Shown here: positions 22,396-27,776 of the stretch, piece by piece
Layout: each line of letters opens with the position of its first letter
Numbering within the stretch: the first letter of the stretch is position 1
Notes under the pieces: generated by a model
Databases searched by the model: none
Told to the model about the DNA's origin: nothing
What the model saw: the letters and a program-made list of their open reading frames with translations, nothing else
Translations under genes and position numbers: made by a program
Assembly (NCBI GenBank): GCA_947628545.1
Contig: CANRAJ010000001.1
Span: forward strand, 1-38,114
Length of the DNA stretch: 38,114 nt
Direction of reading: 5' to 3'
DNA from: an uncultured Bacilli bacterium
GTDB lineage: Bacteria; Bacillota_I; Bacilli_A; RF39; UBA660

Positions 22396-22813
22396 TTAAT
22401 ACCAACTCCTGCTTTGCAAACATTTCTTTTTCTTGCTCCTTACCTAAAGTATGATCATAACCCAGTAAATGCAGTAAACCATGAACGGTTAAAAAAGCCA
22501 GTTCCCGGATCTCGCTATGCCCATATTCTTCGGCTTGAACTTTCATTTGAGGAATAGAAATATATATCTCCCCCAACTGCCGTATATTATACTCCAATTT
22601 AGCATTATCTTCAAATGCAAATGATAAAACATCCGTTGTTCGATCAATATGCCGATATTTTTGGTTTAATTCATGCACCATAGCATCATCGGTTAAAATT
22701 AAAGTAAAATATGAGGCCTTAACCCCTTCCATCTTTAAAGTCCGCCTTATTATTCTTTTTAAATAATGATATTTTCGATAACCATATAAATCGACAATTG
22801 TAAATTTATTCAT
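22352..22813 (-). CDS. ybeY: rRNA maturation endoribonuclease YbeY
   Basis: Zinc-binding motif HGLLHLLGYDH. The ATG at 22813 overlaps the upstream stop (ATGA). The ORF-track N-terminal extension to 22879 overlaps the VanZ-like gene. Confidence 0.85.
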   Translation of the reverse strand: MNKFTIVDLYGYRKYHYLKRIIRRTLKMEGVKASYFTLILTDDAMVHELNQKYRHIDRTTDVLSFAFEDNAKLEYNIRQLGEIYISIPQMKVQAEEYGHSEIRELAFLTVHGLLHLLGYDHTLGKEQEKEMFAKQELVLNGFKRTKKTQTNGD

Positions 22814-23430
22814 CAGATTCTTATCACTCCTAAAGTTTTTAAGATATATAAAATAATAAGGAGAATAATTACTAAACAAATAAAATTATAAATGCCATCC
22901 TTTTGGAAGATTCGCGGCAAATGATTTTTAACGGCCACAAAAGCGATATATAAAAGATATCCTATTACGCCCCCTAAAACATTTAAAATAATATCATCAA
23001 TATCAAAAGCCCGGCCAATATTTAATTGCACAAATTCCACAGTTGCACTCACAATGCCACTAATAATTAGAGCCGGAAAAATATTTTTCGATTTAATATA
23101 ATCGGCAATAAAATAGCCAAACGGAATAAAGACTAAAATATTTCCTACGACATTATAATAAAATAACCGACTCCCAAACTCATATCTTAAGATTTCAGTA
23201 AAAGGAATAAGATTAATTCCCGAACCCCGATTTAATTCTACTTTCGTTAATAATTGAAAAAGTAAAAAGATATAAATAACCGCTAAAATATTAAAAAATT
23301 CTTTGTATAAACTCATTTTTTCGCGATGCGTTCGCCAGTAAAAAAAACGTAATGAAATCATAGTTACTAAAAAAATCATAATTACCGGCCAATTATCATT
23401 GATTGTCCCCTTGATTGTTTCCCATATCAC
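22813..23430 (-). CDS. VanZ family membrane protein
   Basis: 205 aa, multi-TM, with NLIPF..., NILVFIPFGY, EFVQLNIGRAFDIDDIILNVLGGVIGY, the typical VanZ-like signature. Confidence 0.7.
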   Translation of the reverse strand: MIWETIKGTINDNWPVIMIFLVTMISLRFFYWRTHREKMSLYKEFFNILAVIYIFLLFQLLTKVELNRGSGINLIPFTEILRYEFGSRLFYYNVVGNILVFIPFGYFIADYIKSKNIFPALIISGIVSATVEFVQLNIGRAFDIDDIILNVLGGVIGYLLYIAFVAVKNHLPRIFQKDGIYNFICLVIILLIILYILKTLGVIRI

Positions 23431-24843: not shown

Positions 24844-24873
24844 ACAATATATGCTTTTAAACTAAAAATATGG
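24844..24873 (-). promoter_or_regulatory. Sigma-E-type (mother-cell) promoter candidate for yqfC-yqfD
   Basis: Minus strand: CCATATT, 13 nt, CATATATT, compared with the B. subtilis sigma-E consensus (-35 ATATT, -10 CATACA-T). yqfCD is recalled as sigma-E dependent in B. subtilis. Confidence 0.4.
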
Positions 24874-24878
24874 GCAAG

Positions 24879-24904
24879 AAAAAAAGAGCATGTGCTCCTT
24901 TTTT
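24879..24904 (-). terminator. Terminator closing the bacteriocin operon
   Basis: GAGC-atgt-GCTC hairpin, extended by A/T pairs and followed by a U-run, immediately after the peptide B stop at 24905. Confidence 0.5.
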
Positions 24905-25066
24905 CTAACCAACGCAATAAGAATTGGTAATATAACGCCGTAAGACGCTGCCAATGGTTTGACCGATTTTTAAAATGGTCGTGGCCATTTTAGTTACGGC
25001 ATTAATCATGGAAGTGGTAATGCTTCCACCAACAATGCACACTAGTTCATTATTTTTTAACTCCAT
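24905..25066 (-). CDS. Double-glycine-leader bacteriocin precursor, peptide B (53 aa; predicted 39-aa cationic mature peptide)
   Basis: MELKNNELVCIVGG|SITTSMINAVTKMATTILKIGQTIGSVLRRYITNSYCVG. The leader fits the EL..I.GG consensus. An AAGGAGGT RBS lies 5 nt upstream of the ATG at 25066. The ORF-track start at 25162 is an out-of-context extension over peptide A. Confidence 0.75.
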   Translation of the reverse strand: MELKNNELVCIVGGSITTSMINAVTKMATTILKIGQTIGSVLRRYITNSYCVG

Positions 25067-25077
25067 TCTGTACCTCC

Positions 25078-25218
25078 TTATCCGTTGTTGCATTTTAGTG
25101 GGTTCCGATAGCCATCGAGAATACCAATGGCTAAAAGTAAAACCCCACCGATGGCTAGCCAAAGACCGGCTCCACCACCTGATACCTTTTGTAATTCTTG
25201 GTCATTTAAGTTATTCAT
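25078..25218 (-). CDS. Double-glycine-leader bacteriocin precursor, peptide A (46 aa; hydrophobic mature peptide). Not in the ORF track.
   Basis: Manual translation: MNNLNDQELQKVSGG|GAGLWLAIGGVLLLAIGILDGYRNPLKCNNG. An AAGGAGTG RBS lies 6 nt upstream of the ATG at 25218. The TAA stop at 25078-25080 is embedded in the RBS of peptide B. Confidence 0.7.
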   Translation of the reverse strand: MNNLNDQELQKVSGGGAGLWLAIGGVLLLAIGILDGYRNPLKCNNG

Positions 25219-25222
25219 TACA

Positions 25223-25633
25223 TCACTCCTTTATAAATTGAATAATTTTTTGACTAATCTTTTCTTGATTATAGTAAAAACATACTTTGATTATTTCATT
25301 AACATAACTTGGTTTAGCAATATTTATCGTAAATGTTTGATAGTTGATTTTTTCGATTTCGTCATATTTTATCTCGCTGATTTTTTGGATAGTATAGTCA
25401 TATTTTTTATCATTTATTTTTAAGATAGCCCCATCGTGCAATGTATCAGAGTATGTAAGGGGCACATCAATATTTAAATTAACTCCATCACTCACCGCGA
25501 TTAAAAATAGACGATCATATAACTTATGGTTACAAATATAAATGGTTAAGAAAGTAGTTGTCAAAACGACGATTATTAAAGCCCACCAATTATGAGGTTT
25601 AAGATTTAACAGCCGTTGGTAATTATTTTGCAT
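25223..25633 (-). CDS. Short (136 aa) HlyD-like bacteriocin export accessory protein
   Basis: An N-terminal TM helix (NWWALIIVVLTTTFLTIYI) is followed by a beta-rich segment. Its pattern (VPLTYSDTLHDGAILKINDKKYDYTIQKISEI) resembles HlyD/ComB barrel-sandwich ends without the coiled coil. It overlaps the ABC gene stop by 11 nt. Confidence 0.5.
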   Translation of the reverse strand: MQNNYQRLLNLKPHNWWALIIVVLTTTFLTIYICNHKLYDRLFLIAVSDGVNLNIDVPLTYSDTLHDGAILKINDKKYDYTIQKISEIKYDEIEKINYQTFTINIAKPSYVNEIIKVCFYYNQEKISQKIIQFIKE

Positions 25634-27680
25634 CTAAGGCCTCGAAAGTAATAACTTTATCAAATAAATCATCTTGGTTTTTATGGGTAACATAAATTAA
25701 AGTTTTTTGGGGAAAATAAGTTTTTAAGTTGGTTATGATTTGTCTTTCAAGCGCGTAATCAACCTCGCTTAAGGGCTCATCTAAAATAATAATTTTGGCC
25801 TCCTTTAATAAAGCCCGCGCCAGAATGATGCGCTGTTTTTCCCCACCCGAGATGGTTTTATGATAATTATTAACAATGGTCTCATAACGCAACCGTTTTT
25901 TATTAATTACCTCATCCAAAAGACAAACATGGGCAATTTCGTTAACTTTGGCTAAGGGAATATTGCGTCCTAAAACTAAATTATTCCAAATAGTATCGGT
26001 AAAAATAGTTTCATTTTGGGAAACATAAGTAATGTTTTCCCGAATGGTTTTAAGCGAACAATCTAAAATATTTTTGCCATCAATTTCAATAGTCCCCGTA
26101 AAATCACTATACATTTTAGCAAATAACTTGCACATCGTGCTTTTACCACAGCCACTGGAACCTTTAAACATTACTTTAGCCCCCGCGGCAATTGCAAAAT
26201 TAACATCTTGCAATACTAAATGATAATCATTATAACTAAAACTAAGATTTTTTACCATTACGCTGCCTTCATTAAAACTAATGCGTTTGCCCATTTTCTC
26301 CGGAGCAATACTTAAAAAATCACTTATCTTGGTAAACGTGGCCTTAAAAAAATTAAATTTAGGTAATGTATCAATTAAATTTTTCACCGGATTTAAAAAG
26401 TAAGTCATAAGCGAAGAAAAAGTGAGCAAATTAGCCAAGGTTAAATCTTGCTGTAAGATAAAGTAAAAACCACAGGATAGAATACTAAAGTAACCAATTT
26501 CGCTAATGCCGTTTTTTAAATTTTCTTCTTTTAAAACAAACTCATTTAATTTAAAATTATCATAAAGTAAAATGGCTAATTTTTCTTCAATATTTTTTAA
26601 GATTGACGATGTTAAGTTTAAATTTTTAATCGCCGGATAGGCCTCGATTGCCTCCAATAAATAATTATTAAACTCTTCTTCATAAGTTATATTTTGATAG
26701 GCCTTACGATAAATTGGGCGCATCGTTAATAAGCCAATAATAAGATAAATTGTAACAACAAGAAAAAGAATTAAAAACAATTTACTATTTATCCATATTA
26801 AAAGTGGAATAGTCGAAAACATTAAGATGAAATCTAAAAGAAAATTAATAAATAATTCCGTATATAACGCTTTAATATTATTAAGTTCTTTTACGCGCGT
26901 CATTATCTCCGCACTACTTCGACTACTCATACTCGTAGAAGGGATTTTAAATAAATGATTGAGAAAATCGGCGAGCAATAAAACATCAATATTTTTATTT
27001 AAATGATTTTCCAAATAACTTCGCAAATAAGTAAATGTTATTTTAAACAAAGTTACAATAGCAAAAACCAAAATAATGAGTTTTAAATAAGCACCATAAC
27101 CGACCTCACCTAAGGCCTCGAGCCCAATTTTAAAATAGTAACTGGCGGCAATGGTCGTTAAAGTAAGTAAAATACTTATCAAGACAATTTTGACAAAAAG
27201 CATTTTTTCTTGTTTTAAAATATCGCCCCAGATGAGCCAAATACTTTTTCCCTTGGCTAAATAAACAATTTTTTCTTGGGGATAGAACATAAGTAATATT
27301 TCGGAAAAAATGGTTGCAAATTCTGAGCGCTTCATCTTTACTTTGCCTTTAGCGGGATCCATTAATATAACACTAGTTTTCGTAATTTCATAAAGCACCA
27401 CGAAATGATTAAAACCATTTTTATATTTAACATGCGCAATAGCCGGTAAAAAAATATTGGCATCATCCAAAGTGGCCGTTTTTATTCCTTTAGTAGCAAA
27501 ACCATATTTTTGGGCGGCCTGAAATAAATTAAAAGCTGTCGTACCATCTTTAGTTGTTTTCGTATCTAATCTAATACGTTCCATCGGCACATAACCATCA
27601 TAATACTCAATGATTGAGGCCAAACAACACGCCCCACAATCTTGCAAATCATGTTGCCGGACAATTACCATTTTCGCCAT
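25623..27680 (-). CDS. Peptidase C39 domain-containing bacteriocin-processing ABC transporter (ComA/LagD type)
   Basis: The N-terminus has QHDLQDCGACCLASII (catalytic Cys), NHFVVL (His) and MDPA (Asp). This is followed by 6 TM helices and an NBD with GSSGCGKST, ISGGEKQRIILARA and IIILDEP. A GGGAGGAAG RBS favours the ATG at 27680. Confidence 0.9.
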   Translation of the reverse strand: MAKMVIVRQHDLQDCGACCLASIIEYYDGYVPMERIRLDTKTTKDGTTAFNLFQAAQKYGFATKGIKTATLDDANIFLPAIAHVKYKNGFNHFVVLYEITKTSVILMDPAKGKVKMKRSEFATIFSEILLMFYPQEKIVYLAKGKSIWLIWGDILKQEKMLFVKIVLISILLTLTTIAASYYFKIGLEALGEVGYGAYLKLIILVFAIVTLFKITFTYLRSYLENHLNKNIDVLLLADFLNHLFKIPSTSMSSRSSAEIMTRVKELNNIKALYTELFINFLLDFILMFSTIPLLIWINSKLFLILFLVVTIYLIIGLLTMRPIYRKAYQNITYEEEFNNYLLEAIEAYPAIKNLNLTSSILKNIEEKLAILLYDNFKLNEFVLKEENLKNGISEIGYFSILSCGFYFILQQDLTLANLLTFSSLMTYFLNPVKNLIDTLPKFNFFKATFTKISDFLSIAPEKMGKRISFNEGSVMVKNLSFSYNDYHLVLQDVNFAIAAGAKVMFKGSSGCGKSTMCKLFAKMYSDFTGTIEIDGKNILDCSLKTIRENITYVSQNETIFTDTIWNNLVLGRNIPLAKVNEIAHVCLLDEVINKKRLRYETIVNNYHKTISGGEKQRIILARALLKEAKIIILDEPLSEVDYALERQIITNLKTYFPQKTLIYVTHKNQDDLFDKVITFEALDAK

Positions 27681-27776
27681 TTTTCTTCCTCCCTTCACTT
27701 ATACTATTTCCTAAATTAAAGGTATTTCCTTTTTTTAAGACCTAACTTTTTTTAAGTTAATTAATGTTTTTTTTTA

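Follow-up and report, generated by a model that had tools for sequence, protein, structure and literature searches.

A predicted exported peptide pair with co-occurring tail cysteines in a class IIb-like operon of small-genome gut Bacilli

The peptide genes and their reading frames

The window analyzed here, the whole stretch of 38,114 nucleotides (nt) from contig CANRAJ010000001.1, comes from an uncultured rabbit-gut bacterium of the Bacilli, a gut anaerobe. Its reverse strand carries an operon in which the genes of an ATP-binding cassette (ABC) exporter and an accessory protein are followed by two small genes for peptides A and B. Both peptides have a double-glycine (GG) leader, and both keep one cysteine in the tail of the mature peptide. 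The operon resembles those of the class IIb, or two-peptide, bacteriocins, and the two tail cysteines are the main subject of this study. The peptide genes and their ribosome-binding sites are as follows.

25078..25218, reverse strand: peptide A precursor, 46 residues, ATG to TAA, with the stop codon TAA at 25080-25078
25226..25232, reverse strand: ribosome-binding site of peptide A, AAAGGAG, as read from the sequence; it lies within the final codons of the accessory gene, with a 7-nt spacer to the ATG at 25218
24905..25066, reverse strand: peptide B precursor, 53 residues, ATG at 25066, with GxxxG at G35-G39, R43-R44, and Cys51
25073..25079, reverse strand: ribosome-binding site of peptide B, AAGGAGG, likewise read from the sequence; it overlaps the TAA of peptide A

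The precursor of peptide A, MNNLNDQELQKVSGGGAGLWLAIGGVLLLAIGILDGYRNPLKCNNG, is divided at its predicted cleavage site into the leader MNNLNDQELQKVSGG and the mature peptide GAGLWLAIGGVLLLAIGILDGYRNPLKCNNG. The leader comprises 15 residues (25218-25174), with cleavage predicted after G14-G15, and has Val, Leu, and Leu at positions -4, -7, and -12 and Glu at -8. Based on this -4/-7/-12 register and on homologues in which GG is followed by Ser, Ala, Asn, or Ile, the cleavage site in the GGG run was placed after G15. Mature peptide A has 31 residues (25173-25081), a GxxxG motif at G32-G36, and a single cysteine, Cys43 (codon 25092-25090). Peptide B consists of the leader MELKNNELVCIVGG (14 residues, 25066-25025, with ELVCIVGG) and the mature peptide SITTSMINAVTKMATTILKIGQTIGSVLRRYITNSYCVG (39 residues, 25024-24908), in which Cys51 (codon 24916-24914) is the only cysteine; Cys10 belongs to the leader. 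Both leaders are of the canonical type, that of B also having hydrophobic residues at -4, -7, and -12 and Glu at -8. An earlier interpretation of this DNA from the letters alone (hereafter the sequence-only reading) had likewise counted one cysteine per mature peptide and an extra one in the leader of B. It placed both tail cysteines 4-5 residues from the C-terminus, whereas they are the fourth residue from the end in A (KCNNG) and the third in B (YCVG).

The accessory gene stops with TGA at 25225-25223, just ahead of the ATG of peptide A. The two peptide genes lie on the same strand with 11 nt between them, and the TAA of A sits within the AAGGAGG of B. The coordinates thus agree with the sequence-only reading on both signals, and the overlap of stop codon and ribosome-binding site fits its proposal that A and B are translationally coupled. 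The gene geometry suggests near-stoichiometric expression of the two peptides.

With a threshold of 60 residues, the list of open reading frames (ORFs) for the window misses the 46-residue peptide A. The sole ORF listed over it is an 85-residue frame with a TTG start (24905-25162), which is peptide B plus an artefactual upstream extension that crosses the 3' part of A in a different frame. The sequence-only reading had described this masking and called the gene hidden. It is hidden in the ORF list, but gene callers have it, and the exact 46-residue product is already present in a public predicted-protein collection, called on 4 contigs. The translation from the ATG is as that reading gave it, and about 70 further species-level genomes keep the ORF uninterrupted, with matching leader and motifs. 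Both peptides are under purifying selection: compared with relatives, A has a ratio of nonsynonymous to synonymous substitution rates (dN/dS) of 0.17 and B one of 0.08-0.31, values obtained with saturated synonymous sites. A spurious ORF was excluded by the conservation, the dN/dS, and the leader motifs. We therefore consider it almost certain that 25078-25218 is a real gene encoding half of an exported peptide pair; operon anatomy, leaders, and geometry all agree with the proposal that peptide B is its partner in a class IIb-like operon.

In the AlphaFold 2 (AF2) model, peptide B has a leader helix at residues 5-12, a long helix at residues 14-46 with a predicted local distance difference test (pLDDT) score of about 90 in its middle, and a flexible coil tail at residues 47-53, into which the cysteine falls. 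Peptide B scored above the cut-off of no Pfam or NCBIfam family, and searching the PDB with its sequence returned leader-level or chance matches only. For peptide A, relatives in the PDB were limited to the leader peptide CtA (7s5j) and one chance match to a membrane protein. The PDB searches thus gave no solved-structure relative for either peptide.

Family distribution and the tail cysteines

A profile of peptide A matches 53 of 55 other genomes of the host genus and 58 of 60 genomes of the family. A profile of peptide B matches all 49 sampled genomes of the host's family, across about 40 genera, and also one further family of the class; it had no match among about 330 genomes drawn from 27 other families of the class. 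The gene order ABC exporter, accessory protein, A, B is constant in every locus examined, the order of A and B is kept in about 70 genomes, and rpsU or yqfC/yqfD follows the pair in many loci. At the syntenic locus of another metagenome-assembled genome (MAG), A and B share 60% and 70% identity with the peptides of the window, with both cysteine tails intact. The neighboring genes have similar values against the nearest other species (ABC exporter 67%, YqfC 66%, YqfD 62%). The family of peptide B includes 227 clusters at 90% identity, all of which are unnamed or annotated as hypothetical, and 494 clusters at 50% identity, 272 of them with E <= 1e-10. A narrow search with an alignment of B recovered six close loci and one weak partial match in an unrelated MAG. 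Genomes of the host genus are about 1.1 Mb in size. These comparisons show A and B to be members of a large, uncatalogued peptide family that is passed on vertically within a single family of uncultured gut Bacilli with small genomes.

Other matches to the B profile are of a different kind. In a third family of the class, with genomes of about 0.8 Mb, they are restricted to the leader. Frames of 139 residues at G071:C1:578344-578427 and at equivalent places in G085, G186, G203, and G326 match positions 1-28 of the profile, which is the leader; these frames may encode larger cargo proteins with double-glycine leaders. The top match of the profile, P0125 (2076 residues), is a repetitive protein rich in Lys and Glu with 16 weak stretches of similarity, and was rejected as a false positive.

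In the A family, the leader GG and a Trp that lies five residues into the mature sequence are invariant or nearly so, as is G32-x3-G36 (G36 invariant, G32 nearly so). Most members also have an N-P-x-K-C motif with the cysteine 7 residues past G36. The invariant positions of the B family are the GG of the leader, N22, G35-x3-G39-S, R43-R44, and Cys51. This cysteine is invariant in an alignment of 60 sequences and occurs in 119 of the 120 top-ranked clusters at 90% identity. Among the 149 listed representatives at 50% identity, at least 147 have it, 129 of them exactly 7 residues after R-R, and the representatives without it have frameshift-like tails. One B sequence lacking the cysteine, P0067, was considered as a discordant case and set aside, because the exporter and accessory genes beside it are riddled with frameshifts and it is probably an assembly artefact.

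The two cysteines were compared in the A/B pairs of 71 species-level genomes, a sample that includes about 25 other genera. Both tail cysteines are present in 67 pairs and both are absent in 4; no pair has only one. A naive Fisher test gives p of about 1e-6 for this co-occurrence, a value that is overstated since relatives are not independent. In a tree of the exporter, the four pairs without cysteines (G058, G044, G006, and G031) are found at four separate positions. In G044, the clearest of these cases, A ends cleanly with GFFNS ahead of the ribosome-binding site of B, B ends with RRLWKKIY, and both genes are otherwise intact. G048, a related species with the same peptide subtype, keeps the tails (GFFNGKSCK in A and GSNTC in B).

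A further joint loss of the tails was found in a paralogous pair, hereafter the type 2 pair. Its peptide A' ends with GVFCGFFE(K) and its peptide B' with RRLIFG or KRLFS, and both cysteine-bearing tails are gone together. The type 2 pair has a single origin, in a 20-genome clade of the genus, and often yields four-peptide operons (loci L029, L030, L033, L035, L036, L038, L040-L042, L044, L045, L047-L049, L051, L052, L055, L057, L058, L064, and L065). In this clade, the original pair has repeatedly decayed or been deleted, once between loci with near-identical exporters (L030 and L055).

Since the cysteines are kept or lost as a pair, a joint role of the two thiols is suggested, the simplest being an interchain disulfide. 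We consider it probable, from this pattern, that the two tail cysteines are functionally coupled. That the coupling takes the form of an A-S-S-B interchain disulfide is a plausible but more tentative conclusion. The sequence-only reading had raised an intermolecular disulfide from the lone cysteines; the near-invariance of both residues and their joint presence or absence speak strongly for it, although a disulfide and another joint role of the thiols look alike at the level of sequence. S-glycosylation, an AviCys, and a thiolactone were set aside by inspection as roles for the cysteines, since homologues have anywhere from 0 to 9 residues between the cysteine and the C-terminus, and the operon has no recognizable gene for a glycosyltransferase or for a LanD-like or AgrB-like protein.

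The exporter, the accessory protein, and the surroundings of the pair

The remaining features of the operon are as follows.

25623..27698, reverse strand: peptide-cleaving ABC exporter, 691 residues from a GTG start, with a C39 peptidase, an ABC membrane domain, and an ATPase
25223..25633, reverse strand: accessory protein, 136 residues, with an N-terminal transmembrane helix and a beta-rich domain
24873..24910, reverse strand: terminator-like hairpin, with an A-run, GGAGC, a loop, GCUCU, and a U-run; it begins at the end of peptide B
25535..25564, reverse strand: promoter-like site TTGACA-18-TATATT, an 11/12 match within the accessory gene, about 320 nt upstream of peptide A

The exporter matches the Pfam families Peptidase_C39 (7e-36), ABC_membrane (5e-28), and ABC_tran (7e-29) and the NCBIfam model TIGR01193, peptide cleavage/export ABC transporter (2e-106). 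It is kept directly upstream of the peptide genes in all loci examined. The accessory protein is also present in all of these loci and matches no Pfam family. Its AF2 model (pLDDT 77) has a helix at residues 16-35 followed by strands, and all of its matches in a PDB fold search were weak (best E 0.014). The membrane-fusion proteins Spr0693, CusB, MacA, AcrA, and MexA recur among these matches, and a minimal adaptor-like role is plausible for the modeled fold. A role as a thiol oxidoreductase was ruled out, since both cysteines of the accessory protein are unconserved among homologues and its fold is not thioredoxin-like.

The hairpin after peptide B folds with -20.2 kcal/mol (z = -3.98), and none of 200 shuffled sequences was equally stable; a strict consensus scan for terminators did not list it. 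The promoter-like site in the accessory gene is a possible internal promoter that would add transcription of the peptide genes, and the total number of promoter-like sites across the region equals chance expectation. Downstream of the hairpin lie yqfC (YabP family), yqfD, and a VanZ-like gene, followed by ybeY and dgkA according to the annotation of the syntenic relative. The VanZ-like membrane protein gene (22813-23430, reverse strand) stands within the yqfD-ybeY-dgkA string both here and in the syntenic relative L001. The other flank of the operon is a divergent SpoIIIAH-like gene; the annotation of the syntenic relative gives a GerE-type helix-turn-helix gene and YqfC as flanks. The ORF list of the window holds no histidine kinase or response regulator adjoining the operon, and a second copy of the peptide pair was not found in the host's own genome.

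Thirteen loci from other genera of the family carry a third small gene behind that of peptide B, with a start that overlaps the stop of B by 1-23 nt (L018:1345, L031:1436, and L037:1455, all on the reverse strand, and L060, L080, L086, L094-L096, L101, L102, L105, and L106). Its product, which lacks a GG leader, combines a basic N-terminus with a transmembrane helix, and its C-terminal half copies peptide B (GxxxG-T-x2-R...C), with a cysteine at the position matching that of B in 9 of the 13 loci. From this composition, the third gene product looks like a membrane-anchored immunity decoy.

Possible roles of the pair and relation to known systems

As a whole, we favor the interpretation that A and B are a class IIb-like exported pair with coupled tail cysteines, most simply through a disulfide. 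The exporter would cleave both precursors after GG and release a 31-residue A and a 39-residue B. A would form a hydrophobic helix, anchored by Trp, with the tail Y-R-N-P-L-K-C after it, and B a long helix, amphipathic and cationic, whose short coil tail bears the cysteine. As proposed for lactococcin G or plantaricin EF, the two helices may pack in parallel in the membrane through their invariant GxxxG motifs, which would bring both tails out on the same side and adjacent to each other. The path to the cysteine would consist of a few helical residues, a break at Pro, and about 5 extended residues in A, and of 7 helical and 5 coil residues in B. With parallel packing and tails of these lengths, the geometry suggests that the two thiols can meet. 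The single cysteines would act jointly, most simply in an interchain disulfide that locks a 1:1 heterodimer with a predicted monoisotopic mass of 7352.96 Da, and the likely activity would be the permeabilization of membranes of competing bacteria. An antibacterial toxin is the role that we favor for the pair, given the architecture matching class IIb, the repeated duplication and loss of the pair, and the immunity-like third gene in other genera. The most specific form of the proposal, in which a disulfide-locked A-S-S-B heterodimer is core and vertically inherited across a family of reduced-genome gut Bacilli and is the first class II bacteriocin-like molecule with two chains linked covalently, is a tentative possibility.

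Several observations weigh against this interpretation, and part of them would be expected if A and B were an ordinary noncovalent pair held by GxxxG packing alone. The 90%-complete host genome has no Thioredoxin_4/DsbA-like, DsbB, or VKOR gene in searches with PF13462, PF02600, and PF07884, in which control genomes were matched and PF01323 was not searched, and the habitat is the anaerobic gut. Without a Dsb-like gene and a conserved cysteine in the accessory protein, thiol oxidation would have to be spontaneous. Intact pairs without the tails persist in the type 2 clade and in G044, so a cysteine link is not essential to the basic function. In the type 2 pair, A' keeps an invariant lone cysteine inside its GxxxG motif (GVFCG) while B' often has none, which means that a conserved lone cysteine is not by itself proof of a bridge. 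In addition, three of the four joint losses may belong to the decay of a redundant pair: the leader GG is changed to AG in G006, G058 is on a long branch, and genomes sister to G031 no longer have A or carry a truncated B. Relaxed selection on the pair as a whole might thus explain why the cysteines were lost jointly. In a noncovalent pair, the cysteines would be free thiols or be kept for another joint reason, such as a reduced thiol needed for activity, as in lactococcin B, a redox switch that turns the pair off in oxygen, or a receptor contact. The literature that we searched, which contains no interchain disulfide in two-peptide bacteriocins, is also in line with it. However, independent roles of free thiols do not predict the 67/4/0 distribution or the fixed spacing of the cysteines to GxxxG, and the candidate immunity mimic keeps the same cysteine as B. 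We regard noncovalent pairing as fairly unlikely overall. It is very unlikely that the cysteines instead form A-A and B-B homodimers or mixed disulfides with other molecules. Sequence cannot tell which thiols pair, and each peptide offers exactly one, but independent homodimers do not predict that the cysteines are lost only jointly, and the apparent translational coupling of A and B would supply the two peptides at 1:1.

Other observations bear on the toxin role itself. The pair evolves no faster than the adjacent housekeeping genes and is universal in the family, unlike typical bacteriocins. The window contains no immunity-like small membrane gene, with nothing between peptide B, the terminator, and yqfC, and the candidate immunity gene of the other genera has no homologue in the rest of the host genome. 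Only one curated family has a cut-off that peptide A exceeds; the margin is 1.6 bits, and the match runs over the leader and N-terminus. A and B could accordingly be a core exported heterodimer with a physiological role, for instance in signaling, in a sporulation-linked or cannibalism-like process, or as a membrane component, with a separate function of the cysteines. The presence of the pair in all sampled genomes of the family, its fixed site by rpsU/yqfC/yqfD and spoIIIAH, a divergence between species resembling that of its neighbors, a dN/dS well under 1, the lack of an immunity gene or a regulator in the window, and genomes so small that dispensable genes are unlikely to be retained would all suit such a role. 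On the other hand, a C39-ABC exporter, an accessory protein, and two GxxxG peptides with GG leaders, one hydrophobic and one cationic and amphipathic, make up the architecture of a class IIb toxin, and peptide A does score above the threshold curated for a class IIb family. The sensor kinase or response regulator that a pheromone system requires is not found beside the operon. The third gene of other genera resembles an immunity decoy, and four-peptide operons that arise by duplication and repeatedly lose one pair are typical of toxin loci. A nontoxin physiological role is thus considered unlikely. If the pair is a disulfide-locked heterodimer, it would work in the genus of the window without a dedicated immunity gene, which would mean either a nontoxin physiological role or a new route of self-protection.

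Among known systems, the class IIb bacteriocins such as lactococcin G, enterocin 1071, and plantaricin EF/JK (PMC2850506) are the closest. As in these, two adjacent peptide genes share one operon, the leaders are short and of the double-glycine type (predicted at 15 residues in A and 14 in B), and a dedicated C39-ABC exporter and a putative accessory protein are encoded alongside. Class IIb leaders are 15-30 residues long and are cleaved off by an ABC transporter that is dedicated to the peptides and carries a peptidase domain (PMC2850506). The mature peptides are also alike, being helical with GxxxG in both and with one hydrophobic and one cationic amphipathic partner; GxxxG in both partners is a hallmark of all characterized class IIb peptides and is thought to mediate a membrane-spanning helix-helix pair (PMC2850506). 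Judged by adjacent genes, GG leaders, C39-ABC exporter, and GxxxG in both peptides, the locus reads as class IIb at the sequence level; a dedicated immunity gene is not present in the window. The locus differs further in its accessory protein, which has 136 residues compared with about 450 in class IIb, and in being core and syntenic across a bacterial family rather than strain-variable.

Family models place peptide A near the class IIb bacteriocins. It exceeds the cut-off of TIGR03949, the class IIb family of lactobin A and cerein 7B, with 23.1 against 21.5 bits (E 4.7e-5), and this model matches 28 of 38 members of the A family (best E 4e-8). The match is restricted to residues 2-32, namely the leader and the Gly-rich N-terminus, so that the NPxKC tail lies outside the model, and peptide B matches no model. 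The cut-offs for the lactococcin G/enterocin 1071 family are not reached: peptide A scores 22.6 against 37 bits for NF038034 and 16.2 against 29.4 bits for PF11632, and peptide B 14.1 bits against 37 for NF038035. Nor does the pair resemble the ComC/BlpC pheromones, with 13.4 against 20.4 bits for PF03047 and no adjacent kinase or response regulator. The exporter matches the Mbov_0121 family of Mycoplasma exporters (NF045998) at 5e-91, with 306 bits against a cut-off of 500, and the accessory protein aligns end to end with the 126-position model of the MAG1140 family (NF045999, MAG1140_fam) at E 0.2, with 11.8 against 35 bits. The hosts of the Mbov_0121/MAG1140 pair and of the present locus are small-genome members of the same class, and our literature search found nothing functional on either family. 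These similarities hint that mycoplasmas may keep a related module of exporter and partner.

The unnamed family is large (about 500 clusters at 50% identity) and occurs throughout a clade of uncultured gut bacteria whose genomes measure about 1 Mb; it may be a main means by which these organisms compete or communicate, and would be a source of new narrow-spectrum peptides. A covalent link, if present, would fix the ratio of the two peptides at 1:1, raise their effective affinity, and make the activity redox-dependent. Lactococcin B (class IId), a one-peptide bacteriocin, has a lone cysteine whose redox state matters, and it is active with a reduced thiol; it is not known to have a partner cysteine or any co-variation. 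According to a 2023 paper, single-cysteine disulfide formation has never been reported in bacteriocins (PMC10059821), and the class IIb review makes no mention of cysteine (PMC2850506). One tail cysteine per partner, co-conserved at a fixed spacing, is therefore what sets the present pair apart, and these co-varying single cysteines are a new element relative to class IIb. Since all characterized two-peptide bacteriocins are described as noncovalent GxxxG pairs, a covalently tied family would, if confirmed, represent a new structural solution.

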